DNA of 64,000 nt. Source: Alphaproteobacteria bacterium (GTDB taxonomy: Bacteria > Pseudomonadota > Alphaproteobacteria > Bin95). The notes under the pieces were generated by a model. The model worked only from the letters and a program-made list of their open reading frames with translations. It did not search any database and had not been told where the DNA came from. The stretch is taken from the NCBI GenBank assembly GCA_963665325.3, contig OZ224045.1, positions 768,001 through 832,000 of the forward strand. Reading direction: 5' to 3'. Positions 9,130 through 49,141 of this stretch are shown here, piece by piece. Each line of letters begins with the position of its first letter. Position 1 is the first letter of the stretch. The position numbers and the translations under genes are program-made.

Positions 9130-9140
9130 ACACGCGATAC
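9130..9140 (+). repeat. Left boundary direct repeat ACACGCGATAC (att core / nic-like)
   Basis: Exact copy at 49131-49141; followed directly by hairpin GCACC-TTC-GGTGC (9142-9154). Confidence 0.7.
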
Positions 9141-9141
9141 C

Positions 9142-9241
9142 GCACCTTCGGTGCTAACTATCTGACATGATTATGGAATTTTCCCGTTTCCGGTGCAACC
9201 GGGCGCGAGATCGAACCCGGTTTTGCACACACGTGCAACCG
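9142..9241. promoter_or_regulatory. Hairpin, IHF-like site and repeated GTGCAACCG boxes upstream of integrase 1
   Basis: Hairpin 9142-9154; TAACTATCTGACA 9155-9167 resembles YAANNNNTTGATW; GTGCAACCG at 9193-9201 and 9233-9241 with an imperfect inverted copy ending at 9228. Confidence 0.5.
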
Positions 9242-9258
9242 ATCGGGGAGCCGCAGTC

Positions 9259-10386
9259 ATGGCAGCCATTCGCCTCACCCAGCGCCGGGTCGATACCCTC
9301 CGGCCCCGCAAGGCCGTCCGTAATGTCCGGGACGCGGAACTGAAGGGATACGGCGTCCGGATCATGCCCTCGGGCGCAAAGCGGTATTTCATCCACAGCC
9401 AGCACCGGGGCCATCGGGTCTGGAAGATCGTCGGCGACGCGGCGGTCATGACCGAAGCCGAGGCGCGCGCCCGCTCCCGGTCCATGCTGGCCGCGCTGCG
9501 CGACGACAAGGATATCGAAGCGGTCGCTTCCGGCGATGTGCTGTTCGAGACCGTCGCCGAGGAAGTCTTTTCCCGCTATGGCAGGCGCTGGAAGCCGCGC
9601 ACGCTTGAGGTCAACCGCGGTTATCTCCACAACCAGATCCTGCCCTTCTTCGCGGGCCGGCCTGTCGCGGAGATCGACCGGGAGGAGGTGCAGCGCTGGT
9701 TCCGCTCGCTCCATGCGACCCCGGCGGCGGCGAACCGTTCGGCGCCGGTCCTGTCGGTCATCATGCAGCAGGCCGAAGCCTGGGGGTATCGTCCCGATGG
9801 CGGCAACCCCTGCAAGGGCATAAAGCGCTTCCGGCAGAAGCGGTCCGAGCGCTTCCTGTCGCCGGAGGAATACCGCCGCCTCGGCATGGTTCTGGACCGG
9901 CATGAGCGAGAATACCCATTCCATGTCGCGGCCCTGCGCCTGCTTCTGCTGACCGGCTGCCGGAAGTCGGAGATCGTCACGCTGGAATGGCGCTTCTACC
10001 GCGACGGTCACCTGTTCCTTCGCGACAGCAAGACCGGGCCGCGCACGGTCTGGCTCTGCCAGGCGGCCCGGGACGTTCTCGACGGGCTGCCGCGGTCGCA
10101 GCGATGGGTATTCCCCATCGAAGGCCGTCGCGCGCCCTGGAGCTGGCTGGATGCCTTCTGGATGCAGCTGCGCGCCGAGGCGGGCCTTGAAGACGTGCGC
10201 CTTCATGACACGCGGCACAGCTACGCCAGCATGGCGCTGTCGAGCGGCGAGACGATCCGCACGGTGGGGCGGCTGCTGGGCCATGACCATGCGGCGACCA
10301 CGCTGAAATACGCGCATCTTTCCGACGCGACGGTCCGGGAGACGGTCGAGGCCCTGGCGCCGCTGCTCTCGGGGACGCAGTCATGA
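9259..10386 (+). CDS. Tyrosine integrase 1 with N-terminal arm-binding domain
   Basis: RLTQRRVD..VRDAELKGYGVRI arm domain; catalytic TGCRKSE, SKTG, HDTRH, LGH, KY; RBS GGGGAG before ATG 9259. Confidence 0.93.
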   Translation: MAAIRLTQRRVDTLRPRKAVRNVRDAELKGYGVRIMPSGAKRYFIHSQHRGHRVWKIVGDAAVMTEAEARARSRSMLAALRDDKDIEAVASGDVLFETVAEEVFSRYGRRWKPRTLEVNRGYLHNQILPFFAGRPVAEIDREEVQRWFRSLHATPAAANRSAPVLSVIMQQAEAWGYRPDGGNPCKGIKRFRQKRSERFLSPEEYRRLGMVLDRHEREYPFHVAALRLLLLTGCRKSEIVTLEWRFYRDGHLFLRDSKTGPRTVWLCQAARDVLDGLPRSQRWVFPIEGRRAPWSWLDAFWMQLRAEAGLEDVRLHDTRHSYASMALSSGETIRTVGRLLGHDHAATTLKYAHLSDATVRETVEALAPLLSGTQS

Positions 10387-11690
10387 CGGGCAAGGCAAGG
10401 AAGATACGCCTGACGGATGCAGGCGTCGCGAGATTGCGTCCCGGCAGCACCGAATACATCGTCAGGGACAACCGCGTTGCCGGGCTTGGCGTCCGGATTC
10501 GCCCTTCCGGGCATCGCAGTTTCGTGTGGCACGGGACCGTGAACGGCAGGGCGATGCGGACGACCGTCGGTTCGGCCGCGCTGATGACGGTGGAGGAAGC
10601 CCGGATCGAATGCCGGGCCTTGCTGGACGGCTCGCATCCACTTTGCGCCGGAGACCCTGCCGACCGGATTGCCGTTCCCCTCTTCCGGGATTTCGTAATG
10701 GAGGACTGGCTGCCGGCGCGGCGGAGCCATTGCAGCGCCGGCTGGGGCGAGCGCGTGGAACAAATGGTCCAGCGTCGGCTTCTGCCGGCCTTCGGCACGC
10801 TTCGCCTCGACCGTATCGGCAGGCCCCGGGTCGAGCGCTGGTTCGACGCCGTGAGCCGCAAGACGCCGGGCGCGGCCAACATGGCGCTCTCCCTGCTGCG
10901 CCAGATCATGAGCGCCGCGAAAGCCGCCGGCCATGTCGGCACCGACCCGGTCGCGGGCGTCAGGTCGAACCCGCGCCGGAAGATGACCCGGTTCCTGTCC
11001 GCAGAAGAGATCGGCCGGCTTCACCGGACCCTGGACCGCCTTGTGGAGGAACGGCCCTCGCGCCGGCCGCAGGCCGACATCATTCGCCTGCTTCTGCTGA
11101 CCGGCTGCCGGAAGAGCGAAATCCTGACGCTTCGATGGTCGGAGGTCGATGGCGACATGCTCAGATTGGCCACGGCCAAGACGGGGCCGCGCGCGGTATG
11201 GCTGAGCGAGGCGGCGCAGGTCGTCATCGCCCGCCAGCCGCGAACGGGAAGCACTTTCGTGTTTCCCTCGCCACGGGGCCCGGCAAGGCCGTTCTGCCAC
11301 AATCTCCCTTTCTGGCGCCGGGCAAGGCGGGAGGCGGGGATCCAGGATGTGCGCCTGCACGATTTGCGCCATACGGTAGCGAGCCAGGCAGTGGCCCGGG
11401 GCGTCCCGCTGCCGACCGTTGCCCGGATGCTTGGACATGCGCAGCCGACCATGACGCTGCGATACGCCCATGTCGGTGACCGCGAAGTCGAAGCTGCCGC
11501 AGAGCGGGTCGGGGCGATCATCGCTGAGGCTATAGCCTTTGGGTCGGTTGTGATGGGAGTGCTTCCGGACGCCGGGCTGCCGGTTGCCTGGAATGTTTCG
11601 TCTTCGCCTGCCATGGACAGCAGCCCCGGGGGTGCAGCCCACCGACGCCCGGCGCCCACGGCAGTCCCCGCATGCCGTCCTTTCCCATGA
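10383..11690 (+). CDS. Tyrosine integrase 2, paralogue of integrase 1, with a low-complexity C-terminal extension
   Basis: ATGA overlap with integrase 1; TGCRKSE, AKTG, HDLRH, LGH, RY. Confidence 0.92.
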   Translation: MTGKARKIRLTDAGVARLRPGSTEYIVRDNRVAGLGVRIRPSGHRSFVWHGTVNGRAMRTTVGSAALMTVEEARIECRALLDGSHPLCAGDPADRIAVPLFRDFVMEDWLPARRSHCSAGWGERVEQMVQRRLLPAFGTLRLDRIGRPRVERWFDAVSRKTPGAANMALSLLRQIMSAAKAAGHVGTDPVAGVRSNPRRKMTRFLSAEEIGRLHRTLDRLVEERPSRRPQADIIRLLLLTGCRKSEILTLRWSEVDGDMLRLATAKTGPRAVWLSEAAQVVIARQPRTGSTFVFPSPRGPARPFCHNLPFWRRARREAGIQDVRLHDLRHTVASQAVARGVPLPTVARMLGHAQPTMTLRYAHVGDREVEAAAERVGAIIAEAIAFGSVVMGVLPDAGLPVAWNVSSSPAMDSSPGGAAHRRPAPTAVPACRPFP

Positions 11691-11712
11691 CCGGTGCTCC
11701 GACTGCCCGCCG

Positions 11713-12981
11713 GTGCCTCTCGCGCACCCGGCGCCGCCCCCCGAGGCCGCCGGCGAGGACCGCAGCGCCGCGGCCGGGGAACTGCCCGATGTCTGGATAG
11801 AGGCCGCCGCCGGCGCGTTCAGCGCCAATACCGGGCGCGCGCTGAAGGCCGATATGCGCATCTACAGGGCATGGTGCGCCGAAGAAGGGAGAGAGGCGCT
11901 GCCGGCCGCGCCCGACACGATCGTCGCCTTCGTGGACCCGATGGCGGCGACGCGCGCGCCGGCCACGGCGCGCCGCTACGTCGCCAGCATCGCGATGGCA
12001 CACCGGGCGGCCGGCAGCCCGGAGGCGCCGCGGAGCCCGGAGGTCAAGCTCGCGCTGAAGCGCACGCACCGCGACAGGGGACGCCGCCAGGCGCAGGCGC
12101 CCGGCCTCACCTGGCCGCTCAGGCAAAGACTGGCCGAGGCAACCGGAGACCGCCCGATCGACATCCGCAACCGCGCCCTCCTGGCCGTCGCCTACGACAC
12201 CATGCTTCGCCGCTCGGAACTTGCCGCGCTCAGGGTGTGTGACCTCGAGGTCGACGGGACGACCGGCGCGGGCACCGTGCTGGTGCGCAACTCCAAGACC
12301 GACGCCGAGGGCGAAGGCGCCGTGCTCTACGTCGCGCCCGACAGCATGGCGCTGCTGGCCGAGTGGCTGGAGTGGAGCGGCATTGCCGACGGGCGGCTGT
12401 TCCGTTCGCTCTGCCGCGGGCGGTTGGGCGAGGCGCTCGACCCGAGCCAGATCCCGCGCATCTACAAGACCATGGCGAGGCAGGCCGGGATCGAGGCCGG
12501 CCTGGCCGACCGCCTCTCCGGGCACAGCACCCGCGTGGGCGCGGCGCAAGACATGGTCGCACACGATATGAAGCTGCCGGCGATCCAGCAGGCCGGGCGC
12601 TGGAAGAGCCCCGACATGGCGACCCGCTACGGCGAGCGCCTCCTGGCGTCGCGCGGCGCCGCCGCGCATCTCGCCCGCCTGCAGGGGCGGGACGGACCCG
12701 CCGCGCGACGGTCCCCGCCGGCGCCGGCATCGGCCGTGCTCCCGGTTTGCGGTCTCCCGGATCGGGGCGCGCGCCGGGGCCAGGCCCTCCGCCGCCTCCT
12801 GGGCGGCGATGGCGCCGAATCCCGTTTCCACTGCGCCGATCCCCGACCGCTCGGCCGCGATCTTCTCAGCCTCCGCCAGGAACCTCCCGATCCCGCTCCG
12901 TTGCCTCAACATGCCGATGCCGTCGCGTGGCCCGGCCGCCGGTTCGAACACGAACTGTCGATGAGGAGGCGGCCGCCATAA
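11713..12981 (+). CDS. Cre-like tyrosine recombinase (SAM-like core-binding domain); start uncertain, extended C-terminus
   Basis: SANTGRA..DMRIYRAWC, RNRALLAVAYDTMLRRSEL, SKTD, SGHSTRVG, GRW, RY. Confidence 0.88.
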   Translation: MPLAHPAPPPEAAGEDRSAAAGELPDVWIEAAAGAFSANTGRALKADMRIYRAWCAEEGREALPAAPDTIVAFVDPMAATRAPATARRYVASIAMAHRAAGSPEAPRSPEVKLALKRTHRDRGRRQAQAPGLTWPLRQRLAEATGDRPIDIRNRALLAVAYDTMLRRSELAALRVCDLEVDGTTGAGTVLVRNSKTDAEGEGAVLYVAPDSMALLAEWLEWSGIADGRLFRSLCRGRLGEALDPSQIPRIYKTMARQAGIEAGLADRLSGHSTRVGAAQDMVAHDMKLPAIQQAGRWKSPDMATRYGERLLASRGAAAHLARLQGRDGPAARRSPPAPASAVLPVCGLPDRGARRGQALRRLLGGDGAESRFHCADPRPLGRDLLSLRQEPPDPAPLPQHADAVAWPGRRFEHELSMRRRPP

Positions 12982-13758: not shown

Positions 13759-13934
13759 TAGCCGATCCCCGTCTTACCGGGAGGTGCCGTGACCTCCGGA
13801 CACGCCATTTCCCTCTTCCCCGTCAGCGCCGCCCGTCCGCTCATTCCCGACCTCGTAGCAATCCGCATTCCCCAAAGCCCACTTTGTCCTCTCCCCGAGA
13901 TACCGCAAGCCGAGATTCGCCTCCAGCGTCCGGC

Positions 13935-22247: not shown

Positions 22248-22310
22248 ACGTTTCCTGTCGAATTCGGCTCTCGATACGCCCGAGGCCGCATATCTCGCCC
22301 GTCCCAGCAA

Positions 22311-34838: not shown

Positions 34839-34858
34839 AGAGGGGGGAGCGGAAGGCG

Positions 34859-35131
34859 ATGACAGACGGCTGGGTAAGGCTGGACGACAGCGTTGTAGAC
34901 GGAGTGGAAATGGCGGAGAGGGCGGGGCGGGCGGCGACCGGCTTCGCCGGGCTCGGTATCCGCCTCGGCGATGCGGTCGGCATGCTTGGGGCCTACGCTG
35001 TGCCGATCAACTGGTATCTCGCGCGCGACGAGGTCTGCCACATCCTCGCCGACAGCGGCGCGAGCGTGACCGTCATTCGAGCCCTCCGCCCATCCCATGA
35101 CTTCCTGTTGACTTCTGTCTCGCCCGACTGA
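34859..35131 (+). pseudogene. N-terminal fragment of an AMP-binding acyl-CoA ligase with internal deletion
   Basis: RAATGFAGLGIRLGDAVGML joined directly to GAYAVPINW..EVCHILADSGA, then premature stop. Confidence 0.7.
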
Positions 35132-35309
35132 ACCATTCTTCAGCGATCCGTCCGGTCCCGGGTCCGCGCCGAATCGGACTGTCTCCGGTCGGGCTAGAGT
35201 CATCTTCCCGCCCGGCGCGCGGGACATCCTTTTGGTCGCGCGGTTTCACAGGCCGGGACCGTGCCTCGCATCGCGCTGAGTGCCCTGTCCGCTATCGGGA
35301 AGACGAAGC

Positions 35310-36143: not shown

Positions 36144-36274
36144 ATCTCTCCAAGGCGATTTGCACTGGCTTCAGAAACGGGCCGGTGCCAGTTCTGATCC
36201 AGACGAAGCTGGACGATGGGCCCGTCGTTAGGCGCCGGGTCCTGATCCTTCAGGATCCAACGCTGATCAATCGC

Positions 36275-36427
36275 TTATGACGCCGATCGGTGGCCAAGCA
36301 GCGCGCCGAGCAACAGGGTGCTCACGCCGGTCCGCTCGGGGACAATGCCCAGCGCGCTCAAATTGCCGGAGATCGCCGCCCAGCGATCCAGGCGGCGGTC
36401 GAGTTGGATCACGAATACTGGCAGCAT
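36275..36427 (-). pseudogene. Truncated glycosyltransferase family 25 paralogue
   Basis: Manual translation MLPVFVIQLDRRLDRWAAISGNLSALGI...LLLG, matching the start of the intact gene at 44578-45294. Confidence 0.75.
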
Positions 36428-36463
36428 GATGAATCTCGCCAGCCCGACCGGGCCCGGGTATCG

Positions 36464-36552
36464 GGCTGTTCTGTTCAGCGGACGCCCCGACAGAGCGGGA
36501 CACGTCAGCGGTCGCGGAGCGGATGGTCGTTCGAATCGACCGGGAGAGTTAA
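36464..36552. repeat. Conserved upstream element of GT25 genes, copy 1
   Basis: Aligns with 45401-45489; exact 14-bp core CGACAGAGCGGGAC. Confidence 0.7.
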
Positions 36553-36565
36553 CGGAAGCTGCAGC

Positions 36566-37408
36566 CTATCCGTCCCGGACGGAACCGCCGCCGTCGGCGT
36601 CCGGGTTCGAAATCACTCCGTTCCGTCTCGCTTCCTCCATGCGCCAACGAGAGCGGACCATGGGGTTGGAACGAGGGTAGAACTTCCAGCGCAGATGATC
36701 GCTCCGCTTTCTTATCGAGCGGACGAACCTATCGGGGAAGACATGCGGTTTGGCGAAGTCGGGCACATGGCGTCCATCCCCGATATGCCGAACGGCCGGT
36801 TCCGCGAGATAGGCCACCCGGTAGCCGAGTTCCAGATAGCATCGCGCCACCCGGGATTCCCTGGCCCAGGCCCGGAAATCCGAATAGCGTCCGACGATCC
36901 TGTAGTCCCGCATGCGCCGCAACCCCGGGTTGAAGGACAGGCCCGCAAACGCCCGGGCCACAGCAGGATCGGCAACGTGATATGCGACGCCGGAGTGTGT
37001 GGTGAGCTGTGGTCCGATGTAACCGGGGGCGAATTCGGAGGCAATTCTGAGCCCGACCATCGAGTAACGGTCGGATTCCTTCAGGACGGCAAAGGAGGGC
37101 TCGATGAATCCGTCGGAGAAGAATTCCCAGTCGTCCTCGCAATGGAAGACCCATTCGGTCTCGACACGGGAATAGAGCCGGTCGATGCTTCGGATGAGCC
37201 CGATCGGCTGTTCGTTGACGAGCACCTCGAATTTCAGTCCGCTGCCCGAGAAGCGGCGGATCACGGCGTGAACGGCCGGATCACCGCTATCCTCGGTGAC
37301 CACAAGCTTCGCGACCGGACCCTCCAGGCGCGGCAATAGGGAGCCGAGCGTCCGCTCCAGAAGGTCGAAGCGCCCGCAGCTCGTCAAAGCGACGGTGTAG
37401 GGCTCCAT
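36566..37408 (-). CDS. Glycosyltransferase (GT-A fold, family 2-like)
   Basis: LTSCGRFDLLERTL, VTEDSG, FHCEDDW, SFNPGLRR, VRHIG; RBS GGGAG. Confidence 0.85.
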   Translation of the reverse strand: MEPYTVALTSCGRFDLLERTLGSLLPRLEGPVAKLVVTEDSGDPAVHAVIRRFSGSGLKFEVLVNEQPIGLIRSIDRLYSRVETEWVFHCEDDWEFFSDGFIEPSFAVLKESDRYSMVGLRIASEFAPGYIGPQLTTHSGVAYHVADPAVARAFAGLSFNPGLRRMRDYRIVGRYSDFRAWARESRVARCYLELGYRVAYLAEPAVRHIGDGRHVPDFAKPHVFPDRFVRSIRKRSDHLRWKFYPRSNPMVRSRWRMEEARRNGVISNPDADGGGSVRDG

Positions 37409-37759
37409 CCACACTCCCGGCAACCGGCGACGGGCCCGCGGTCGCCACAGCGCCGTCTCCTGTGCGAAAACAAACGAGCCGCCCGGCCCGTGGGATCTGG
37501 AGCCGTATCGCTCCGAATGTGGTACCAGAGGGCCCTATTGCCGCGGCAAGCAGCGTGGCCGATGCTAGAGTTGAACGGTTGCAAATTCAATTGGCACTCT
37601 TCCGTAATCGATCCCCAGTTGCTGGTCCGCGTCGGAAAGGTTGTTCCGCGCCGTCCCGTTGCCGCCCGGCCCAAGCAAGCACGTCCTCCGGGCTGACGGC
37701 CATCCGTTGCGGCACCAGGGCCGCATCGGCCGGCGATCCGGCCGCCGCATGACACGGCC

Positions 37760-39043
37760 TCATTCCCGCCTTCGATTGGTTCGTCCAGCCAGAACATCCG
37801 CTATCAGCGTTTCATAGCCGTCAATCGAGCGTTCGACCGAGAACCGCGCCGCGTTGATGCGGAGCGCGGCCTTGTTCGCCGGCTCGTCGAGCGCGCGCCG
37901 CATGACGCGGGCCAGCGCCTCCGCGTCGCCGACCGGGGCAAGCAGGGCCGGGTCCCCCAGGACTTCCGCGGGACCGCCCGGGCAGTCGGTCGAGACTGCC
38001 GGGCAGCCGCAAGCCAGCGCCTCCACCAGCACATTGCCGAGCCCCTCGTGCCGCGAGGAGAGCACGAACAGCGCCGCGCGGGCCATGAAGGCAAACGGGT
38101 TCTTCACCCAGCCCGGCAGGGATACGCAATCGTCAAGGCCGAAGCTAGCTATGCGGGCTTCGAGTGTGGAGCGCAACGGACCGTCGCCCAGAATGACCAG
38201 CCGGTAGGGCCGATTTGCGCGGAAATGCCGGAAGGCGTCGATCAGCGTCGAAAAGTCTTTCTCCCACACCAGCCGCCCGACACCGAGAATAACGGGCGGT
38301 CCGTCATCCGAAAACCAAGGATGCTCCGGCTCAAGCACTGCCAATTCTCCTATATCTGGAGCGAAGGCGGGATTGTATATCATTGTTATCTTATCGGCCT
38401 GCACACCGACCACTGCGGCAAAGTTATCCGCCACCCCACGGGATATCGCGACTACCCTGGACGCTGCCGAAAACACACAATGATCCGTTTCCCATTTTTC
38501 AACAATACTGCGAGCAATCGGGATTATCTCCGGGCAACCGTGTGTCATTCCAGCCGCAAAGAATCCTGCCTTATTCGCCGCCAGGAGATTGGTAAAAGCG
38601 ACATCGGGCTTCCGTTCCTCAAAATACCGGCCGAGGCGAAGCGCCCGGATGAAAGCTGCCCGCCTCTGGCGCCTGGCAAGGTCCAGGAGCGGCCAGCGAT
38701 GCTTTCTTACAAGACGGTATAAAAGGCAGGGCAGCCGGACGAGCGGCAAACGACGCATAAACCAGTGCGCGCTATCGGAAAAGCTGAGCTCACGATAGCG
38801 TTTCTTTTGCTTCCGAAACAGGTTAGCCGCCTGCCGTCTTGTCCGGCTCCACCTATCGGGACGCCGGGACAACACAAAGACCGATGCCCGCTCCGATATG
38901 TCGCCCGAGTAATCGTTCGTCGGTTGGAATAGCACCAGATCGACAGAGTGTCCTCGTTGGCAAAGCCCGTTGACACTGCGGATAACCGACCTCTCGGCCC
39001 CTCCCCCTCTCAATTCTGCAATAACCCAGCAGATATGCGCCAT
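37760..39043 (-). CDS. Glycosyltransferase family 4 (GT-B)
   Basis: GGGAER, IYNP, VGRL..EKDF, SRHEGLGNVLVEALACG (Ex7E). Confidence 0.88.
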   Translation of the reverse strand: MAHICWVIAELRGGGAERSVIRSVNGLCQRGHSVDLVLFQPTNDYSGDISERASVFVLSRRPDRWSRTRRQAANLFRKQKKRYRELSFSDSAHWFMRRLPLVRLPCLLYRLVRKHRWPLLDLARRQRRAAFIRALRLGRYFEERKPDVAFTNLLAANKAGFFAAGMTHGCPEIIPIARSIVEKWETDHCVFSAASRVVAISRGVADNFAAVVGVQADKITMIYNPAFAPDIGELAVLEPEHPWFSDDGPPVILGVGRLVWEKDFSTLIDAFRHFRANRPYRLVILGDGPLRSTLEARIASFGLDDCVSLPGWVKNPFAFMARAALFVLSSRHEGLGNVLVEALACGCPAVSTDCPGGPAEVLGDPALLAPVGDAEALARVMRRALDEPANKAALRINAARFSVERSIDGYETLIADVLAGRTNRRRE

Positions 39044-39050
39044 GGTGGCC

Positions 39051-39839
39051 TTACTCCAGCCTTTGGAAGATCGTATTGCGATAGCTTGGCGACGCCTTCG
39101 GCTCAGCCGTGAAACCCAAATCGGACATAAGTCGGATGATCTCCGCCTGGCGCTCGTGGCTGCCTTCAAGCTCGACGATCATGGACCGGACGGATGGCGC
39201 GGAGAATGTCTTCGTCCCCCCCTCCAAAATGCCCAGCTCCAGTCCGTCCACATCGATTTTTACATGCGTCGGCAATGGCGGTGAAAATTGCTGCACGAAA
39301 TCATCCACCGAAAAACCGATTGCGCCTTGGCGGAATTTAGTGGCAATGGGGCGCTCAAGCTGGTCCTTCTCCGTGTTGAAGCCGTGCATTGCAGTTCCGA
39401 CGCCAGTATCCGCCTGGTTGAGCCTCCCGAGTTTTGTGTTTGAGTCGAAGGCAATCTGATACGCGACGATTCGACTGTCTATCCCGGCACGCTCTATGGT
39501 CTCGTTCAGCAACGCATAAGACGCGGCTTGAGGCTCGAACGCCAACACCTGTATATTGCGCTGAAGGGCGGCATACAAGCTATAAGCCCCGACATTCGCG
39601 CCAATATCCCATAGCATTGTCGTACGGTTGACGGAAATGTTGTCCAGCCATCCTCTCGTGTCCGCTTCGAAGTCGCCACGAAGCCGAAATGTAGGGGAGC
39701 CGGGCTTATAAAGTGCAAGTATGAGCTTGCGAAGCGGTACTAGCGTTTTCCTGAAAGTTCGTAACTTCTTCTCTGGACCAAGGGGAGCCGTTATGAACTT
39801 AATGAATAAAATGATGATGGTACTCAAAAAGCTGGTCAT
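39051..39839 (-). CDS. FkbM family methyltransferase
   Basis: WDIGANVGAYS, AFEP, HVKIDVDGLE. Confidence 0.88.
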   Translation of the reverse strand: MTSFLSTIIILFIKFITAPLGPEKKLRTFRKTLVPLRKLILALYKPGSPTFRLRGDFEADTRGWLDNISVNRTTMLWDIGANVGAYSLYAALQRNIQVLAFEPQAASYALLNETIERAGIDSRIVAYQIAFDSNTKLGRLNQADTGVGTAMHGFNTEKDQLERPIATKFRQGAIGFSVDDFVQQFSPPLPTHVKIDVDGLELGILEGGTKTFSAPSVRSMIVELEGSHERQAEIIRLMSDLGFTAEPKASPSYRNTIFQRLE

Positions 39840-40771
39840 TTTGATAATTTTTCCAGGATGAATGGCGCCGGCCAGCTCCACGCTTCGGCGCGGGCCTGCG
39901 CATCGAGGTGGTAGCTGGGGTCGAAAAACTTTGCGAGTTCTATGTTGGCGTCGGGCGGAATCAGCAAGTCATCCATGCCTCGCGGGCAGGATATTAACTC
40001 GCCGGTCCTTATACCCGCTTCGCAGACATATAGGTTTACCAGAACGAGTGGAAACGGCAAGGCGAGAAGCGACGCAATCCTCAAAATCTCCGTCAATCGT
40101 CGGGACACTTTATCGTCTTTCGGCCCGGTCGGGACTCCAAAGGTGATCGGTAGTTGGTTCCACTCAAGGTCGTAGAAGTTCTGCGTGAGCGTCCCGAACC
40201 GATCCGAGTCCACCCGGACCATCTTCGGGACGCCATGGAAACAGAACAACTTGCAATCCTTCGGCACGGGCACGCCGTCTTCGGAAAGGAATTCCTCGAC
40301 GATGATCTTCGGGCGGAGAAGGCGGTAATTGCCTTCGCTTGTGCCTCCATAGTGGTCCTTCTCAAGCCATTTGCGGAGGAAGTCGCGGCCGACGGCCTCG
40401 TCCGGGTCGGTGTGGAAGAGAATCGGGCCGCTCATATGCGTCGGTTTCATCACGCAGGATGCGCGGTCCAGGACAAACGCTCTTATCTCGTCGGGGCTCC
40501 TAAGCACCCGGTAGGTCTCCGGCGCATAACCCGGCCCGACCGTGTTGTCGATATAGAGCTTTGCCAACTCCTTGTCTGTGATGAACTGGTATAACGGGTC
40601 CAGCAGTGAGCGGTCCGTCTTGATCCGGTAAATCAGGTCGGTCAGCCGCCCCGCACCTTCGGGGTCTGGCTGCCGGCCTTGCCTGCGCACGAACCGCCGC
40701 CGGCAGAACTCCCGGTCCCCCCAAGCATTGCGCGGCAGCCAGCGCCGCGGGATCAGGCAAAGAGGGTTCAT
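39836..40771 (-). CDS. TupA-like ATP-grasp amidoligase, possibly degenerate
   Basis: ITDKELAK, KPTHMSG, IIVEEFL, DCKLFCFHG; usual RVD position reads LVN. Confidence 0.75.
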   Translation of the reverse strand: MNPLCLIPRRWLPRNAWGDREFCRRRFVRRQGRQPDPEGAGRLTDLIYRIKTDRSLLDPLYQFITDKELAKLYIDNTVGPGYAPETYRVLRSPDEIRAFVLDRASCVMKPTHMSGPILFHTDPDEAVGRDFLRKWLEKDHYGGTSEGNYRLLRPKIIVEEFLSEDGVPVPKDCKLFCFHGVPKMVRVDSDRFGTLTQNFYDLEWNQLPITFGVPTGPKDDKVSRRLTEILRIASLLALPFPLVLVNLYVCEAGIRTGELISCPRGMDDLLIPPDANIELAKFFDPSYHLDAQARAEAWSWPAPFILEKLSK

Positions 40772-40888
40772 TGTCCGGGGTGCCCGCTCATGTGCGGCCG
40801 ACAAGGCAACGGGCAAGCGTCGTAATTTGAGCCACGGGAATGCTCCAGCCGGTACCGACCGGCACAGTGTCCGGAAGATAGCTGCGGG

Positions 40889-41009
40889 CGGCGGTTCTCG
40901 CATCCGCCAAGGCCGCGCCAGACCCGCCAGCTCCGCCATCATCCAGCCCGTCTTGCGCTCGATCCCCGAAAGAAGCCCGTCCGGAAACACACCCCCGCCG
41001 CCCTGATTT
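40889..41009 (-). pseudogene. IS701-family transposase fragment
   Basis: Peptide DGLLSGIERKTGWMMAELAGLARPWRM matches the IS701 transposase N-terminal signature as I recall it. Confidence 0.65.
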
Positions 41010-41176
41010 GGCCTGCATGTTTGATTCGTTCTCAACGCGGGTTATTCGCCCGTATCGCCTATCTCGTTCCAAGCCGCAACAAAAGATTGCCGTATCTCTG
41101 AACCCGTGGTTCGCAGACGGCCGAGGCGGTAAGATCAGCCGCGAAACGGATCACGAACTCATGCGGCGCGGTTATC

Positions 41177-42403
41177 ATGGCCCACATCACGATGCTCATC
41201 CAGAAGCTCAAGGGCGGTGGGGCGGAACGGAGCATATTCAGAACCGCCGGCGGGCTGGTGGAACGGGGGCACGACGTGGATATCGTGCTCTTCTCGCCGA
41301 CTTTCGTTTACCCCGGGGAATTGCCCCGGACGGCGCGGTTGATCGTGCTGTGCGGCCGCTTCGGCTGGATACGGCGCACCCGAAGCGATGTCCCGCAAGA
41401 AACGCTCTGGCGGCCTTGGCTGGCCTCGCCTTTCCGCCTGGCGCGCTTCGCGGCCGGCCTGTTTCATGAATTCGGAGCCTCCGCCCGGGTCCTGATGCGT
41501 CCAGCTTCGCTGGGCCATGCGCTGCGCCTTGCCCGCTATTTCGAGCGCGAACGGCCGGACATCGTCTTCGCCAACCTGGCGTCGGCGGAATATGCGGCAT
41601 TCTTCGCCGCGCGCCTTGTGTCTTCTCCCCCGCCGATCATCCCGATCCTGCGCGGCGCCGATGATCCGGGCGCAAAATCGACCAGACGCCGCCGGTTGCT
41701 GTTCCCGATGGCCGCCCGTCTCGTGGCGGTGTCCCGCGGCGTGTCAGAGAACATCGCCGCCATTGTCGATGTGTCGACGGAAGTGGGAATCGTGACGATT
41801 TACAACCCGGCGTTTGCACCGGAGATTACGCGACACGCGGAGGCCGCGCCGGACCATCCGTGGTTTCGTGACGGCGAACCGCCCGTCGTGCTGGGCGTCG
41901 GGCGCCTCACGCCGCAAAAGGACTTCCCGACACTGATCGAGGCGTTCCGCCGCGTGGTCGTCAAACATCCCTGCCGGCTGCTTATCCTGGGCGAGGGTTT
42001 CGGTCGCGCGGAACTGGAAAGCCGGATCCGAGCGTTGGGTCTTGAGGACCGAGTGTCGCTGCCGGGATGGGCCGATAACCCTTGGGCTTTCATGGCCCGG
42101 GCCGCGCTATTCGTGGTGTCGTCACGGTACGAAGGCCTGAGCAATGTGCTGGTCGAAGCGTTGACCTGCGGCTGCCCCGCCGTCTCGACGGATTGTGCCG
42201 GTTCGTCGGAAATTCTGGAGGATCCCGATTTGCTCGCGCCGATGGGCGACCCGGAGAGGCTGGCGAAAGCGATGCTGCGGGCGCTCGCCCGCCCGGCTGA
42301 CAGGTCAACCTTGCGCGGCCGCGCCGCCCGGTTCTCCCTGGAAAGGACTGTGGACGGATACGACGAACTGATTGCCGCGGTTCTGGCCCAGGCGAAGTCG
42401 TAG
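41177..42403 (+). CDS. Glycosyltransferase family 4, paralogue of 37760-39043
   Basis: GGGAERS, ALRLARYFE, IYNPAFAP, SRYEGLSNVLVEALTCG. Confidence 0.88.
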   Translation: MAHITMLIQKLKGGGAERSIFRTAGGLVERGHDVDIVLFSPTFVYPGELPRTARLIVLCGRFGWIRRTRSDVPQETLWRPWLASPFRLARFAAGLFHEFGASARVLMRPASLGHALRLARYFERERPDIVFANLASAEYAAFFAARLVSSPPPIIPILRGADDPGAKSTRRRRLLFPMAARLVAVSRGVSENIAAIVDVSTEVGIVTIYNPAFAPEITRHAEAAPDHPWFRDGEPPVVLGVGRLTPQKDFPTLIEAFRRVVVKHPCRLLILGEGFGRAELESRIRALGLEDRVSLPGWADNPWAFMARAALFVVSSRYEGLSNVLVEALTCGCPAVSTDCAGSSEILEDPDLLAPMGDPERLAKAMLRALARPADRSTLRGRAARFSLERTVDGYDELIAAVLAQAKS

Positions 42404-42438
42404 ACGCCGGGCGCCGGTTCAGCGGCCTCTCCGCAATT

Positions 42439-43563
42439 TCAGAGCAGTTCCCGATAGACTGCAAGCGTCTTCGCACACATCAGGTCCTGCGTGAAATGAG
42501 CGAGGACATGCGTACGCGCCCTGGCTGCGAGAGTGGGGCCGGCTGCGAAGAGCGCCTTTCGGATGCCCTCGGCGAGCGCGGCCGGATCGCCCGGCGGGAC
42601 CAGCCATCCGGTTTCGGCATGACGGACAATTTCGCGCGCGGCGCCAAGATCGCTGGAGACGGCCGGCAGACCCATTGCGCCCGCCTCCGCCAGCACTCGC
42701 CCGAACGACTCCGGACGGATGGAAGCGGAGACCACAACATCGCTGGCTGCGTAGGCGGCCGCCATGTTGTCGGTATGATCCGCAAAGCGCGCCGGCAGTC
42801 CTTCGGCCAGCGACTCCAGTTCGCGCCGGTATGCCTCTCTGCTCCGGTCGGAACCGATGAACACCGCGACAAGGTTCATGTCCGCAAGCCCGCGCATCGC
42901 GTCGATCAACACCCCATGGCCCTTGAGGCGGGTCAGCCTGCCGGGCAGGAGCGCTACAAGCGCTCCTTCCGGGATTCCCCAGGCCGTGCGCAGCTTCACC
43001 TTTTCCTGGGCGCGTACGGCGGAAGGGTCGAATGCCGCCGCGTCTATGCCCTGATGCACCACCCGTACGCGATCGCGCGGGCAGCCGTAGAGCTCCTCCA
43101 CATGCTCCGCGATAAAGTCGGAGACGGCGATCACGCGGTCACCGGAAGCCATGACGCGGTTGTAGGCGCGTTTGGCGGCACTACCGGCGCCGTAGGCGCC
43201 GTGGACAGTCGTGACGAATGGCACCCTTGCGCGCCGCGCCGCCGCGCGGGCGCTCCACGCCGGCGCGCGCGAGTGGGCATGAACGAGGTCTACGCCTTCT
43301 CGAGCGATAAGGGTTCCAAGCCGGCCCGAATTTCGCCACAGCCCGATGGGATTCTTGGTGTCGACAGGCAGGCGGACATGGTCAGAACCGAGGCCCGCAG
43401 CCATCCGCCCGCCCGACGAAGCCACGAGCACCCGCACACCAGCGCCGCGCAAGGCAGCGGCAACGTCCAGCGTGCCAAGTTCGGCACCGCCCGCTTCGAG
43501 CGCCGGAAGCACCTGAAGCACGGTTTTGCCGTGCAATTCCGTTCCGGCCCGGGACGATTCCAT
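42439..43563 (-). CDS. Glycosyltransferase family 4
   Basis: VLQVLPALEAGGAE, HAHSRAPAW, PGRLTRLKG, PESFGRVLAEA; start could be GTG 43575. Confidence 0.9.
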   Translation of the reverse strand: MESSRAGTELHGKTVLQVLPALEAGGAELGTLDVAAALRGAGVRVLVASSGGRMAAGLGSDHVRLPVDTKNPIGLWRNSGRLGTLIAREGVDLVHAHSRAPAWSARAAARRARVPFVTTVHGAYGAGSAAKRAYNRVMASGDRVIAVSDFIAEHVEELYGCPRDRVRVVHQGIDAAAFDPSAVRAQEKVKLRTAWGIPEGALVALLPGRLTRLKGHGVLIDAMRGLADMNLVAVFIGSDRSREAYRRELESLAEGLPARFADHTDNMAAAYAASDVVVSASIRPESFGRVLAEAGAMGLPAVSSDLGAAREIVRHAETGWLVPPGDPAALAEGIRKALFAAGPTLAARARTHVLAHFTQDLMCAKTLAVYRELL

Positions 43564-43674
43564 AGCAACTGTCACAATCGGAAATTTGGGCGGCCATGTA
43601 AAGGGCGGGCATTTCCAGCGATCCTCGACTGTCCTCTGGAGCGACGGACCACGCGTGCCATCGCTGAAAGCCGC

Positions 43675-44298
43675 TCAGGAAATGCCCTGCGACGCTTCCA
43701 CCACGCACGAAACCCGTCGGTCGAACTTGCGCAGTTGGCGGGCGATCAGCCGGTCCTTGACCAAAGGATGGAGCGACGCCAGCCACCGGTACCTGCGGTT
43801 TTCCCATCCCTCAATGATCATCAACTTCCAGTCGCCACCGTCCAAACGCACGGCCACGACGTTATAGGGAGCCGTGTCCATGGTTAACAGGCGTTCCTTC
43901 CGCAGCCACCGCTTCAACCCGTCGATCGCCCGGACCAGAGAAGGCGTCAGGCCGTGTTCCCGAATAACCTGGGAGAGATTGCGGGAAATGCGGCCGTCAT
44001 GGTCCCGGCACAGCCGCATGACGATGCCCCGGCCCAGATCGGTATCGACGACGCCCTCGATCGCCGGGATGCGGTCGAACACCGAGTCCGCCCCGCGCGC
44101 CCTCAGTCGCCGGTTGTCTTCAAGATCCCATCTTTGCTGGCGAAGACAGTCCGCATCGTCACGGACCGCCACCTTGACGCACAGATCCGGATCATCCGGG
44201 TGGACGTAGCAATGCCGCTTGGTGCCCCTCGCGAACGGTTCGCGCCCGGAGAGGGCAAGGGGGCGTTCGGGGGATGTCGGCGGTCCGGATATCTTCAA
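43675..44298 (-). CDS. YrbL-family kinase-like protein, copy 1
   Basis: FARGTKRHCYVHPDDPDLCVKV, VDTDLGRG, DTAPYNVV, IIEG. Confidence 0.8.
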   Translation of the reverse strand: MKISGPPTSPERPLALSGREPFARGTKRHCYVHPDDPDLCVKVAVRDDADCLRQQRWDLEDNRRLRARGADSVFDRIPAIEGVVDTDLGRGIVMRLCRDHDGRISRNLSQVIREHGLTPSLVRAIDGLKRWLRKERLLTMDTAPYNVVAVRLDGGDWKLMIIEGWENRRYRWLASLHPLVKDRLIARQLRKFDRRVSCVVEASQGIS

Positions 44299-44577
44299 TG
44301 CCTGATCTTCACTTAATGGACGTGCCTTCGGTCAATGCGCCGAAGCGGTCTATACGAAATTGTGGATATCTTGTAATCGATGCAGCCGGAGTGACCGAAG
44401 GTAATCGCTTTCAGCTTAGCGATCTGCTGCGCGGATCCTGTAAAGGAGGAAGTTATCGTTCCACGCGGCGCGTTCAGGTTTGCTGCGCATGGTCATTGCC
44501 CAACTCCCGCCCGGCGATGCTGAGGACGAGCCTGCGCATAGGGGCGAGGCGTGCTTTTCGTCCTTGATGTCGCTCCT

Positions 44578-45294
44578 TCAGGGTCGATAGGGCACTTCCA
44601 CTCTGCGAACCTGCCCTGTCATGCGCCGCAAGCAGATCCTGGCCTTCAAAACGGCTCGCACCGCGGGGCCGGTCGTGCGTGGGAAGAACTCTCCTTCATT
44701 GTCCGAGCCGAAATGATCGGCGTGGCGCGCTATTCCCGGGACGACATGGGACGGCTTCAGGCGGCGCGCGATGGGAGAACCGGGCATATGGAACAGCATT
44801 GAGTCTGCCGTCATGCCCACCGAGGACGCCATGTTGAGGATGATTTCAGCGCCTGCGCGGTTGAGCATATAGGCGTAAGCGCCTGCCGAGGCCCACGAGA
44901 TCGGGCGAATTGCGCTGCCGTACGGCGTCTCGCCGATTGGCCGACCGAGCAGCAGAGCCTTGCGGCGGCCGTTCAACTTTATCGCATTCGTTCCGGCAGG
45001 CCACCACTCGACCGATGCCAGCAGCCTGCGAACGTCGGGCGCAAGCTCGGCATCGTCTTCGAGGATGAGAGACGCCGGCGCATCGGTTCGCAGGAACTCG
45101 CTGATGGCAACAAGATGGCTTTCCCTGCAACCGGACTGCGGCAGGGACAAGCCGTCATGGATCGATCCTACGATGCTTCCGGCGTCGATACCCGGAATTC
45201 GCATTGCTTCGATGCGGAGACGGTCCAATTGGCCCATTATCGCCGTCCAGCGGTCGGGGCGCCGGTCGAGATTGATGACGAACACGGGCAGCAT
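44578..45294 (-). CDS. Glycosyltransferase family 25 (LPS biosynthesis)
   Basis: FVINLDRRPDRW, GCRESH, LILEDD, AYAYML. Confidence 0.88.
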   Translation of the reverse strand: MLPVFVINLDRRPDRWTAIMGQLDRLRIEAMRIPGIDAGSIVGSIHDGLSLPQSGCRESHLVAISEFLRTDAPASLILEDDAELAPDVRRLLASVEWWPAGTNAIKLNGRRKALLLGRPIGETPYGSAIRPISWASAGAYAYMLNRAGAEIILNMASSVGMTADSMLFHMPGSPIARRLKPSHVVPGIARHADHFGSDNEGEFFPRTTGPAVRAVLKARICLRRMTGQVRRVEVPYRP

Positions 45295-45400
45295 GGCGGA
45301 CCCCGCAAGGCCCGTCGCTGGTGCCGGGCCATTGCGACTGCCAGCGCGTAAGCATGGCTATCTGTTCGCCGGGCTCGGGTCGTGCTTCCTCGCCAGGTTC

Positions 45401-45489
45401 GGCTGTTCCATTCAGCGGGCACCACGACAGAGCGGGACGCGCCAGTAGTCGCACGAGCGAGAATCCGGCCATATGGGCGCGAGAGTCAA
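45401..45489. repeat. Conserved upstream element of GT25 genes, copy 2
   Basis: Aligns with 36464-36552; includes a minus-strand TTGACT. Confidence 0.7.
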
Positions 45490-45532
45490 GCCGTAGTATG
45501 GCGCGGTGCGCTCCGTGAAAGGGTCGCACCAC

Positions 45533-45676
45533 ATGGCGAAGGACACTGACGACAAGCCGGTGGCGCGGCTGAAGCCGTCCAATTGCCAGCCGAGCGAGGC
45601 GGAACTCGAAGAGGATGTGCGGATCGACGCGACGCCCGGATCACTGCTCCGGACGTCATGGCGGTCGTTCGGGTAG
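45533..45676 (+). CDS. Small 47-aa ORF, possibly degenerate at the 3' end
   Basis: MAKDTDDKPVARLKPSNCQPSEAELEEDVRIDATPG...; GAAAGGG upstream; not in the ORF track. Confidence 0.4.
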   Translation: MAKDTDDKPVARLKPSNCQPSEAELEEDVRIDATPGSLLRTSWRSFG

Positions 45677-45721
45677 AGACCCTCAAGCCCCGCTAAACGG
45701 GCTGTTCGTCACTCGCCCATA

Positions 45722-46354
45722 TTATTCCCGTTCGAAGCGACTTTGCCGCTTTCGGTCCGGGATTCGATTCCCGGTCAATTTCGAAACGCGCCGGTCGAAC
45801 TTGTGCAGCTGACGGGCGACCAGGCGATCCCTTGTGAAAGGGAAGAGCCACGCCAGCCACCGGTACGTCCGGTTCTCCCAGCCTTCGATGATCATCAACT
45901 GCCAGTCGCCGTCGCCCGAACGCACGGCCACGACATTATAGGGGGCCGTGTCCCTGGTCAGCAGGCGCTCTTCCCGCAGCCACCGCTTCAGCGCCTCGAC
46001 CGCCCGGATCAGGGACGGCGTCAGGCCGTGTTCCAGGATGACCTGGGCAAGATTGCGCGATATGCGGCGGTCGTGGTCGCGGCAGAGCCGCATGACTATG
46101 CCCTTGCCCAGATCGGTATCGACGACCCCCTCGATCGCCGGGATGCGGTCGAACACCGAGTCCGCCGCGTGCGCTCTCAGCCGCCTGTAGCCGTCGAGAT
46201 CTCGTCTCTGTTCGCGAAGGGCGCGCTGATCTTCGGGATTGGCCACCACCTTGACGCAAAGATCGGGATCGTCGGGATGGACGTAACAATGCCGCCTTTT
46301 GCCTTTGGCAAACGGTTCGCATCCGGCCAGCGCGAGCGAGCGCATCTCAAGCAT
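45722..46354 (-). CDS. YrbL-family kinase-like protein, copy 2
   Basis: Close paralogue of 43675-44298 with long identical DNA stretches; start uncertain (up to 46378). Confidence 0.8.
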   Translation of the reverse strand: MLEMRSLALAGCEPFAKGKRRHCYVHPDDPDLCVKVVANPEDQRALREQRRDLDGYRRLRAHAADSVFDRIPAIEGVVDTDLGKGIVMRLCRDHDRRISRNLAQVILEHGLTPSLIRAVEALKRWLREERLLTRDTAPYNVVAVRSGDGDWQLMIIEGWENRTYRWLAWLFPFTRDRLVARQLHKFDRRVSKLTGNRIPDRKRQSRFERE

Positions 46355-46386
46355 CGGCGGATTCGAACCCCATGGCACGGGGCTGC

Positions 46387-47438: not shown

Positions 47439-47560
47439 CCTCGCCCGGATCGCTCATCTCTTCCAGAGCTATCACATATCGACATCAGAGCGATGGATCG
47501 CGACTGCGGCTGCCATCAGGTGCGTGGAAAAATGAGAGTTTGGGACGACAGCTTCTCCAG

Positions 47561-48067: not shown

Positions 48068-48396
48068 GAGCCCTTGCCGCCGTCCCACAGATGGACACAA
48101 CGGAGGACTTCGTGCTGCAGACCGGTCGCCTCCCGGCCGCCCGCAGCCGAAACCGTGAAATGCCCGAACAGGGCCAGGCGTTGCAGGTCCGCGTCGAGGC
48201 GTTGCTGTTCGTCGGTCGAGAGCGCAAGGGCATGCCCGGCCGGCTGCGGAACAGGAGCCGCCGCCTCCTGGGCCGCCCGCTCGCAGCAGAGCCACCCGAA
48301 CCGGGAGATCTTCATCTTGTGCTTCCTCGCCCGCTTGCCACCCGCCTCCCAGATCTCGGGCGGGAGGTAGAGGCTGCGAGGCCTAGCCCGGTCCAA
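48064..48396 (-). CDS. Ribbon-helix-helix-like protein 2
   Basis: RSLYLPPEIWEAGGKRARKHKMKISRF; TTG start with GGGAG RBS. Confidence 0.6.
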   Translation of the reverse strand: MDRARPRSLYLPPEIWEAGGKRARKHKMKISRFGWLCCERAAQEAAAPVPQPAGHALALSTDEQQRLDADLQRLALFGHFTVSAAGGREATGLQHEVLRCVHLWDGGKGS

Positions 48397-48409
48397 CCTG
48401 CCGCTCCCT

Positions 48410-48736
48410 TCAGTCGAACGATGTCTGGCCGTCGAGCCACAGGTCCGCATCGGCGCCCAGCTTCCGCCATGTCCGCCCGCCATCGAGATCATCGAGGCGC
48501 AGCTTCTCCGCCTGCTCGAGAATGCGCAGCATGCGCATCATGCTGCGCAGCACCTGCGGCGGTATTCCCGTTGCCGTCGCATCGGTCGCCGTCTGCCAGA
48601 AACGGTGGGTGTGGACGAGATAATCCCCATGCCGCAGTCCTTCGGCTCCGGCGGCTTCGTGAATGCGCGCCCAGTCAGCATCGGTCACCAGCACGCTGCG
48701 CCGTTTCTTCGGTTGCTCCCCGGTCCCTGTCGCCAC
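48410..48736 (-). CDS. Ribbon-helix-helix-like protein 1
   Basis: KRRSVLVTDADWARIHEAAGAEGLRHGDYL; probable GTG start with GGGAG RBS. Confidence 0.65.
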   Translation of the reverse strand: MATGTGEQPKKRRSVLVTDADWARIHEAAGAEGLRHGDYLVHTHRFWQTATDATATGIPPQVLRSMMRMLRILEQAEKLRLDDLDGGRTWRKLGADADLWLDGQTSFD

Positions 48737-48779
48737 CGCCCTGCTCCCTGTCCGTCTCATCCCTTTGCCCATGCCACAT

Positions 48780-49130
48780 AAGAAAGCAAATATCATGTAT
48801 CAAAGGCAGAATTAACATACACCCGCCACTGTCACATGGGCAAGCTGGCATGATAACCGTATAATCGCCACATAATCAAACTGTATCTGTTCATACACCG
48901 CGACTACCTGATTCCACACCGTCCTGTCCTTTCACAGATGGCAGCCAGAACTAAATTACACACCTGTGTGTGACTTTTCGCTCTCAATGCTTTCTTCATT
49001 ATACGGCGATCCATCCTTCCGGGAACCACTTGACATGACTCATAACATACTGTATTTCAAGCAAAGAAACAGGAAATTGCCTCAATCCATGTCAGCTCTG
49101 TGAGCATTAATCTCGCTATAGATTTCTGCT
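48780..49130. promoter_or_regulatory. AT-rich control region with repeated ACACC boxes between the RHH operon and the right boundary
   Basis: CATACACC at 48816 and 48892, CCACACC at 48914, palindrome ACACAC-CT-GTGTGT 48958-48971, inverted TGACATG/CATGTCA at 49031/49088. Confidence 0.5.
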
Positions 49131-49141
49131 ACACGCGATAC
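49131..49141 (+). repeat. Right boundary direct repeat ACACGCGATAC (att core / nic-like)
   Basis: Exact copy of 9130-9140; minus strand reads GCGTATCGCGT-GTAGCAG. Confidence 0.7.

Follow-up and report, generated by a model that had tools for sequence, protein, structure and literature searches.

A probable 40-kb integrative mobilizable element with tandem integrases, from a family multiplied across a genus

The systems closest to the island described here are GInts, integrative mobilizable elements (IMEs), Tn554 and the MobF (TrwC-type) relaxases with their origins of transfer (oriT). GInts carry ginABCD and are flanked by 10-17 nt imperfect repeats that are attP/attB hybrids, with 6-7 nt staggered cuts, and variants of the core redirect target choice, as described in PMC5385486 (Bardaji et al. 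2017). The R388 nic region is GCGCACCGAAAGGTGCGTATTGTCT/ATAGCCCAGATTTAAGGA (PMC4814116, Table 1), and its positions 12-25 are essential (PMC4176350). For pCU1 TraI, the core pentanucleotide alone fixes the nick and other oriT regions tolerate mutation (PMC2943615). TrwC can integrate DNA into nic-containing targets (PMC3264647). The subject of this analysis is an island in a 64,000-nt stretch of an alphaproteobacterial genome (contig OZ224045.1); the whole stretch is called the window. Positions 9141-49130 of the window are probably a 40-kb integrative mobilizable element. The family to which it belongs spans the genus, is present in many copies and has its two integrase genes in tandem. The short direct repeat at its ends is probably the att core used by the island's own two integrases, IntA and IntB, at an ACAC-type core beside a hairpin.

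A preliminary description of the window had placed the ends of the island correctly and had read them as two halves of a MobF oriT, rejoined when the island forms a circle. The R388 nic sequence that it gave is identical to the printed one, and the integration by TrwC that it cited is stated in PMC3264647. The IncN nic sequence that it gave was not confirmed, the motifs searched for occurring 0 times in the text of the pCU1 paper. The two-halves reading itself is not supported, for reasons that emerge from the comparison of the island with its relatives.

Island ends and their host target

Coordinates are those of the whole window, on the plus strand unless stated. G000 is the genome of the window, C1-C5 are its contigs and G002-G016 are the genomes of relatives. 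The window contains the repeat ACACGCGATAC exactly twice. The two plus-strand copies occupy 9130-9140 and 49131-49141, and their starts are 40,001 bp apart, as the preliminary description had reported. The word count is weak evidence alone, at least two matches with at most one mismatch arising in 12 of 100 shuffles. The same terminal bases are reached by three independent comparisons: the split of a host repeat, a second copy of the island and the sister islands of G016. These comparisons uphold the boundaries first proposed. Throughout G000, the full 11-mer is found three times, each at an island end.

The host repeat is about 450 bp long, occurs at 98 places in G000 (nhmmer) and is also plentiful in most other genomes of its genus. 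One copy has been split by the island at model positions 203-212, at the conserved motif ...CGCGATAC/GCGCGAAAC, where the slash marks the point of entry. In 27 unoccupied copies in G000 the site runs through uninterrupted as ...cgcGATACGCGCGAAAC, and none of these 27 cores has the full 11-mer, of which GCGATAC is part of the host repeat consensus. The left half of the split copy has a promoter-like TTGAC..TAGAAT at about 8953-8981, directed into the island; a promoter scan made no call there.

The second island copy in G000 is near-identical, is spread over two contig ends and has its junctions at the same bases. Its left part matches window 9009-23436 (C4:14439-1) at 99.7%, and its right part matches 36781-49154 (C3:1337637-1325264) at 100%, the matching range being 35643-49154 versus C3:1325264-1338693. 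C3 and C4 each end inside the island, and the left core of this copy, ACAAGCGATAC, has one mismatch to ACACGCGATAC. The two sister islands of G016 (37 and 27 kb) start to align with the window at 9140/9141 and cease at 49134.

Just inside the left end lies the hairpin that the preliminary description had placed there (Table 1); its folding does not stand out from that of shuffled sequences (z -1.04 and -1.74). Across both non-coding ends, TGACATG is the sole 7-mer with three occurrences, one on the left and two on the right, and it is kept in the sisters. These words fit arm-type sites, because the integrases carry arm-binding domains. No tRNA gene is present in the window, so the target is not a tRNA gene, and an Rfam scan of the window found no family at gathering score.

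Table 1. Positions of the features of the island and its borders in the window.
Feature	Position	Strand	Remarks
Left half of the interrupted host repeat copy	8946..9140 (C1:776946-777140)	+	nhmmer; model positions 3-212
attL core, direct repeat ACACGCGATAC	9130..9140	+	ACAC + 7 target-matched bases
Backbone block 1	9141-11524		hairpin, intA, intB
Conserved hairpin/palindrome GCACCTTCGGTGC	9142..9154		GCACC-TTC-GGTGC, inside the island, then TAACTATCTGACATGA
TGACATG word	9163..9169	+	candidate arm-type integrase site (P' arm); kept in sister left ends
intA	9259..10386	+	P4-like tyrosine integrase; ATG 9259, reading frame open from 9193
intB	10383..11690	+	second P4-like tyrosine integrase, 37% identical to IntA; HDLRHT + LRYAH motifs
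intC	11584..12981	+	third tyrosine recombinase, outside the common backbone; Pfam 1.5e-17
hsdM/hsdS/hsdR	14287-21114		defence cargo, type I restriction-modification
YgjP-like peptidase	21114-21830		cargo
GmrSD	22311-24419	-	defence cargo
Backbone block 2	26695-33660		relaxase + 461-aa gene
MobF (TrwC-type) relaxase-helicase, 1808 aa	26709..32135	+	Y17, Y24, Y25, H...D..LHTH motif
Backbone gene, 461 aa	32260..33645	+	81-83% identical in G016 islands
Lipid A acyltransferase, glycosyltransferases, FkbM methyltransferase, TupA-like ATP-grasp, two YrbL-like genes	34029..46378		cargo
NikA-like ribbon-helix-helix protein, 168 aa	47561..48067	-	probable relaxosome accessory factor
Backbone block 3	47626-49134		ribbon-helix-helix module + AT-rich arm
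Small backbone reading frame, 83 aa	48064..48315	-	present in G016 islands
Backbone reading frame, 128 aa	48410..48796	-	adjoins the AT-rich arm
Conserved AT-rich right arm (P arm), ~330 bp	48797..49130		ends in TTCTGCT; alignments of 7 right ends and 3 backbones
TGACATG words in the right arm	49031; 49088	+; -
Right-arm palindrome AATCT-N6-AGATT	49108-49123
attR core, direct repeat ACACGCGATAC	49131..49141	+
Right half of the interrupted host repeat copy	49132..49338 (C1:817132-817338)	+	nhmmer; model positions 203-423

The junction in the element family and how it is read

The island has many relatives. G000 holds about ten further tandem pairs of IntA-like and IntB-like genes, with 57-61% and 50-55% identity. 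At E <= 1e-60, 15 of the 16 other genomes of the genus have IntA-type genes, with such IntA-like and IntB-like pairs also counted in 15 of 16, and none of 20 genomes from two sister genera has them. IntA-type matches number 26 in G000 and 44 in G005. Orthologues of IntA with 85-89% identity are present in ten other genomes of the genus. Every family member has two tyrosine integrases at the hairpin end, and not every member has a relaxase. A decayed third element of the same subfamily lies in G000 at C5:192388-193149, where IntA is 84% identical and cut at residue 231; its target, ...gggctaccgcatgCACACATCTCAG, is a different one and is also used by sister islands in G016, G008, G013, G004 and G015.

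The ends of these elements follow one rule. Upstream of the IntA-type gene, 14 sites in G000 read (G/T/C)ACAC(C/G/A), spacer, GCACC, loop, GGTGC, TAA. A regular expression finds this motif in 21 of 30 loci from relatives, and four further loci (L049, L061, L064, L052) have doubly changed arms, GCATC/GATGC. The rest are L039 with a 4-bp version, two loci cut by contig ends, and L051 and L066 with an imperfect version only. Seven right ends align to ...(A/G)ATTT(T/C)TGC(T/C), followed at the boundary by ACAC. The junction common to all sister elements thus runs ...TTTTGCY, then the repeat ACAC + N6-7, then SC-GCACC-loop-GGTGC-TAAC. The flanking repeats are 10-12 bp long, identical or one mismatch apart, in elements with both ends known. 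They read ACACGCGATAC in the window (11/11), ACACATCTCG in the first G016 sister and the same with one mismatch in the second, and ACACATCATG in G006, G004 and G010, where the site falls within the 3' CATGACA module of a repeat from the same host family. An 11.2-kb element at C1:1786973 has ACACCGGGCAGC on both sides (12 bp). This relative keeps the hairpin, the repeat and the integrase pair without a relaxase, and NikA-like genes and genes like that of the 128-aa protein remain at its right end.

Three features of the junction point to an integrase crossover. Firstly, the N6-7 bases track the target, as described for GInts: they vary between elements whose adjacent 45 nt are near-identical, and they always match their own target. 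Secondly, spacer (5-8 nt) and loop (3-5 nt) lengths compensate, their sum being 10-11 in 14 of 14 G000 sites. As a result, ACAC stands at a fixed distance from the distal arm and TAAC, and the hairpin stands at a variable distance from GTGT, the reverse complement of ACAC; this geometry fits proteins on duplex DNA, not a relaxase ruler. Thirdly, palindromes flank both sides. A palindrome at the right end lies 6-7 nt from the boundary, with its symmetry kept and its sequence not: AATCT-N6-AGATT in the window and the first G016 sister, and AAAATTT-CGC-AAATTTT in G006. A third subfamily (C3:993385, C5:332860, C2:83105) has a palindrome as well as ACTATCTGA beyond a GGTGT boundary, on the side of the ribbon-helix-helix (RHH) gene. 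The attP site would accordingly be composed of the right palindrome, TTTTGCY, ACAC, N6-7, SC, the hairpin and TAACTATCTGACATGA. The preliminary description had asked whether homologous islands end in the same motif at other loci; they share the hairpin, ACAC and the repeat, and the bases close to the proposed nick differ.

The 10-12 bp repeat would then be the core common to attP and attB. IntA and IntB, possibly as a heteromer, would exchange strands as classical tyrosine recombinases do, in the 6-7 bp that follow ACAC. The hairpin on the integrase side and the second palindrome on the right would be parts of core-proximal protein-binding sites, and the TGACATG words would serve as arm-type sites. 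Excision would yield a circle in which a non-coding attP region of about 450 bp lies between divergent integrase and RHH operons. The relaxase and the NikA-like proteins would nick an oriT, most likely in the attP region, and transfer would proceed through the coupling protein (T4CP) and type IV secretion system (T4SS) of co-resident elements.

The position of oriT follows from what the sister islands conserve. The window and the G016 islands have only three blocks in common (Table 1), and the conserved non-coding DNA consists of the two island ends plus 124 bp at 32136-32259. Homology of the sisters starts just 10-14 bp before the relaxase ATG, and 25850-26694 is not conserved; this includes most of the stretch at 26200-26700 that the preliminary description had named as a rival nick location, which is likewise not conserved in the sister islands. 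Since conserved non-coding DNA lies at the ends, with no other near the relaxase gene, and NikA-like genes adjoin the right arm, an oriT at or near attP is plausible and even probable.

Several observations weigh against assigning the core to the integrases. The predicted circle junction matches the R388 nic region at about 26 of 34 positions in a manual count, and the hairpin arms, GCACC/GGTGC, are the same as those of R388 IR2. All family members have GTGT at the boundary, which resembles the core pentanucleotide of pCU1 TraI. The arms stay complementary despite variation of the loop, including the change to GCATC/GATGC, which would suit a single-stranded hairpin, and the siting of conserved non-coding DNA and NikA-like genes described above would also suit a nick at the junction. 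No excision product, circle or empty site of the exact locus was found in a search of the G000 assembly; the programmatic search for the circle junction gave 0 matches, and contigs from public runs (Logan) were short pieces, none spanning 9101-9114. The purH flank and the permease flank are never neighbours in the relatives examined. Lastly, the activity of the integrases, like the functions assigned to the relaxase and the palindromes, is a prediction from sequence.

The R388 likeness becomes smaller when the family is considered. The spacer after the hairpin makes up 8 of the roughly 34 compared positions, with 5 of 8 matching, and these are mostly target-matched core. The core bases that give the likeness are GTATCGC in the window, and CGAGATG, CATGATG and others in sisters; they differ among islands whose relaxases are 88% identical, so bases next to the proposed nick are not conserved within the relaxase lineage. 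The arms are identical, and their distance to GTGT is variable (10-13 nt, being the spacer of 5-8 nt plus a pentamer), as opposed to a fixed 9 in R388. What is kept family-wide is the identity of the 5-bp arms, GTGT and a loose RGCA after it. Among all listed GCACC..GGTGC hairpins of G000, G(G)TAT follows at the island's two copies and at one other place, C1:1531420. A search of the 71-bp left end against plasmids gave only chance-level matches (best E = 0.1). The likeness appears to consist of the shared 5-bp arms plus chance matches in a target-matched core. In view of this core, a variable spacer, a hairpin retained in a relaxase-less relative and integrases in every member, the reading of the ends as two halves of a MobF nic site is not supported. 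As a separate observation, the other hairpin, at C1:1531407-1531420 on the minus strand, is followed by GTATCG and sits downstream of another element's relaxase gene (C1:1524136-1528239), at a distance of about 3 kb; it is a possible internal oriT candidate of that element.

The alternative that survives best is that the attP core lies inside a functional oriT, with the hairpin as the relaxase-binding repeat and GTGT^ as the nick, and that oriT is complete only in the excised circle, as the preliminary description had put forward in its second alternative. We consider this unlikely, though it accounts for a good deal: besides the identity of the arms to IR2, the post-boundary RGCA(A/G)AAAT is loosely like R388 ATAGCCCAGATTT, GTGT is invariant, pCU1 TraI is tolerant outside its core pentanucleotide (PMC2943615), the conserved non-coding DNA and the NikA-like genes lie where such an oriT would be expected, and complementarity of the hairpin survives a double change. 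The 11.2-kb relaxase-less element even keeps NikA-like genes and the hairpin, as if mobilized in trans. Against it, the 6-7 bases 5' of the proposed nick vary among 88%-identical relaxases, whereas the corresponding R388 positions fall in the essential stretch 12-25 (PMC4176350); the hairpin-to-GTGT distance varies; the palindrome of the C3/C5/C2 subfamily lies 3' of GGTGT on that strand; and an oriT wholly within 48797-49130 accounts for the same facts without a split. In a sharper form, the element's own oriT would have the integrase crossover core between its relaxase-binding hairpin and its nick, so that integration splits oriT and only the circle is nicked; this strikes us as improbable. 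If true, it would be a built-in interlock against Hfr-like chromosome transfer, and the MobF relaxase would have to accept any 6-7 bases just 5' of the nick. An overlap of oriT and attP would, if true, be a new way to couple excision with transfer.

A rolling-circle role for the MobF relaxase-helicase, which would move the island in and out through HUH nicking and strand transfer at nic-like targets, as IS91, Helitrons or TrwC do, with the integrases as accessories, is very improbable. In favour of this role, which the preliminary description had also offered, are the integration of DNA by TrwC at targets that contain nic, the relaxase's own paired tyrosines and histidine motif, the hairpin near one terminus and the invariant GTGT at the boundary. 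Yet hairpin-adjacent bases, expected to be element-borne and constant, vary with the target, relatives with the same ends have no relaxase while the integrase pair is in every member, and palindromes and candidate arm-type words stand at both ends, as in an att site.

The flanks bear on a last reading, in which the repeat is incidental. In G012 and G016, purH adjoins the homologue of a flank of the other island copy (C3:1323391-1324703), and in G002 the permease flank adjoins a homologue of C4:19314-20771, near the left flank of that copy. These swapped flanks point either to recombination between the two island copies or to an assembly that threaded them wrongly, so that the two repeat copies in the window may stem from different insertions. 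Whichever way the flanks are paired, the core repeat still matches at 10/11 or 11/11. Placement of the island by homologous recombination between host repeat or island copies draws on the non-syntenic flanks, on a second copy that spans two contig ends and on GCGATAC in the host consensus, but it is hardly credible, as sisters at unrelated targets show the same ACAC + N6-7 duplication at the same distance from the same termini, and the full 11-mer is missing from all 27 unoccupied cores and confined to island ends. The reading of the repeat as the att core of IntA and IntB is the one we retain.

Backbone genes, cargo and the host repeat

IntA matches the Pfam family Phage_integrase (5.8e-16) as well as Arm-DNA-bind_3 and Phage_int_M, and P4-type arm-binding domains are present in both IntA and IntB. 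The gene intC is missing from both G016 sister islands, and its homologues of 55-60% identity are at other places in other genomes; since the sisters do without it, the element is not defined by an integrase trio. The relaxase matches Pfam TrwC (2e-71) and AAA_30 (1.4e-48), and NCBIfam MobF at 234.9 bits versus a cut-off of 100. It is 88% identical in the G016 islands, and its relaxase domain has at most about 41% identity to any plasmid relaxase in PLSDB. The adjacent 461-aa protein has no Pfam or NCBIfam match; an Atlas feature score of 0.97 to DUF1173/Endonuc-like_C clusters is a lead only to a DUF1173-like or endonuclease-like protein.

The module at the right end appears to be related to NikA. 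The 168-aa protein has a sub-cut-off match of its own to PF21983 (E = 0.17), and 11 of 22 aligned homologues match this family (best 4.9e-6). No family match was found for the 83-aa protein. Atlas scores of 0.91-0.93 to NikA-like and RHH clusters suggest, as a lead only, that the 128-aa protein is also RHH/NikA-like, and in G000 other relaxase genes have distant homologues of it upstream.

The preliminary description saw no T4SS or coupling-protein gene, and the searches agree. No coupling protein match (PF02534 or PF10412) occurs inside C1:776-817 kb, where not every island open reading frame (ORF) was scanned, and VirB4 (PF03135) has no match anywhere in G000. The mating apparatus, if any, is therefore of another type or was missed. 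G000 holds about 17 TrwC-type relaxase homologues and seven TrwB-type coupling proteins, the latter outside the island and directly beside one relaxase class. Two other locations of oriT were considered and rejected: nine regions upstream of relaxase genes have no common hairpin or motif, and no AT-rich oriT was evident upstream of the seven TrwB-like genes.

Within the glycosyltransferase cargo, two YrbL/PhoP-network-like paralogues (43675-44298 and 45722-46378) have 82% DNA identity. Next to them is a truncated acyl-CoA dehydrogenase fragment (ORF 46902-47438, minus strand); positions 46386-47401 are 92% DNA-identical to C1:2388571-2389589, and the fragment appears to be a piece of a chromosomal gene captured by the island.

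The host repeat has a layout of its own. It opens at the 5' end with a promoter-like TTGAC..TAGAAT; a conserved, GC-rich core and a variable middle part come next, and in the 3' module three CATGACA repeats follow each other at intervals of about 11 nt. An intact example lies in G000 at C4:139263-139714; Rfam assigned it no family, with only a chance-level ssnA match (E = 0.34). The repeat may itself be mobile, because it sits at different places in different species. About five copies have, after the 5' module, a gene whose N-terminal domain is small-terminase-like (Terminase_2, E ~4e-12), for example at C3:720912-721892 and C5:194934-196127 of G000, and the short repeats may descend from a longer unit that carries a gene. 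Another copy contains an IS110-family transposase gene (G000 C1:1919235-1920662, minus strand).

Relation to known elements

Like GInts (PMC5385486), the island groups its several tyrosine recombinase genes at one end and has variable cargo and, at the far end, a short AT-rich stretch of low conservation; its direct repeats are within the 10-17 nt range of the imperfect GInt repeats. In contrast to GInts, only two integrases are conserved here, both of them P4-like with arm-binding domains. A ginD-like gene was not found behind the integrases, and no coding-like plus-strand ORF follows intC. GInts are described without a relaxase, the word occurring 0 times in PMC5385486. Membership in the ginABCD group was rejected because the third integrase is not conserved, which sets the island apart from the GInt description. 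The NCBIfam model for GmtZ of the gamma-mobile-trio matches IntB only at E = 0.0058 (14.6 bits versus a cut-off of 600).

Tn554 likewise has two adjacent tyrosine recombinases (TnpA/TnpB) and a short core at its junctions. Its proteins are not known to be P4-like, it is not known to carry a relaxase and it uses one preferred site. The likeness to R388 comprises the arms GCACC/GGTGC, a loop of GAA(A), a T directly ahead of the proposed cut, TAGC behind it and a MobF relaxase in cis. It ends with the variable spacer of the island, nic-proximal bases that are not conserved in sisters, and a hairpin that is also in relaxase-less relatives. In IS91- or Helitron-like elements the HUH enzyme would be the only recombinase and no core-derived repeat would be expected; the island has two or three tyrosine recombinases, and a target-matched repeat of 10-12 bp flanks the elements with both ends known. 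Full-text searches of a limited literature collection found no description of a family with tandem or paired integrases of this kind, or of an oriT/attP overlap.

The nearest class is that of the IMEs. The island has recombinase genes at one end, flanking att repeats, a relaxase and accessory proteins of its own, and no mating-pair apparatus or coupling protein of its own among the island ORFs, not every one of which was scanned. It differs from other IMEs in its tandem integrase pair, in the many copies per genome and in its low target specificity (ACAC plus a matching core), which includes sites in a multi-copy host repeat. The family needs ACAC and a short matching core and often lands within a multi-copy repeat, which makes many landing sites per genome available, and the behaviour of the family is nearer to that of a site-selective transposon than to that of a classical tRNA-targeting island. 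The islands and repeats are substrates for rearrangement, as the swapped flanks show, and the cargo of the family includes defence and cell-surface genes. The family provides a natural series for how the core of a tyrosine recombinase changes specificity. In summary, tandem P4-like integrases are joined here with a MobF relaxase module, in an element family highly multiplied in one genus.

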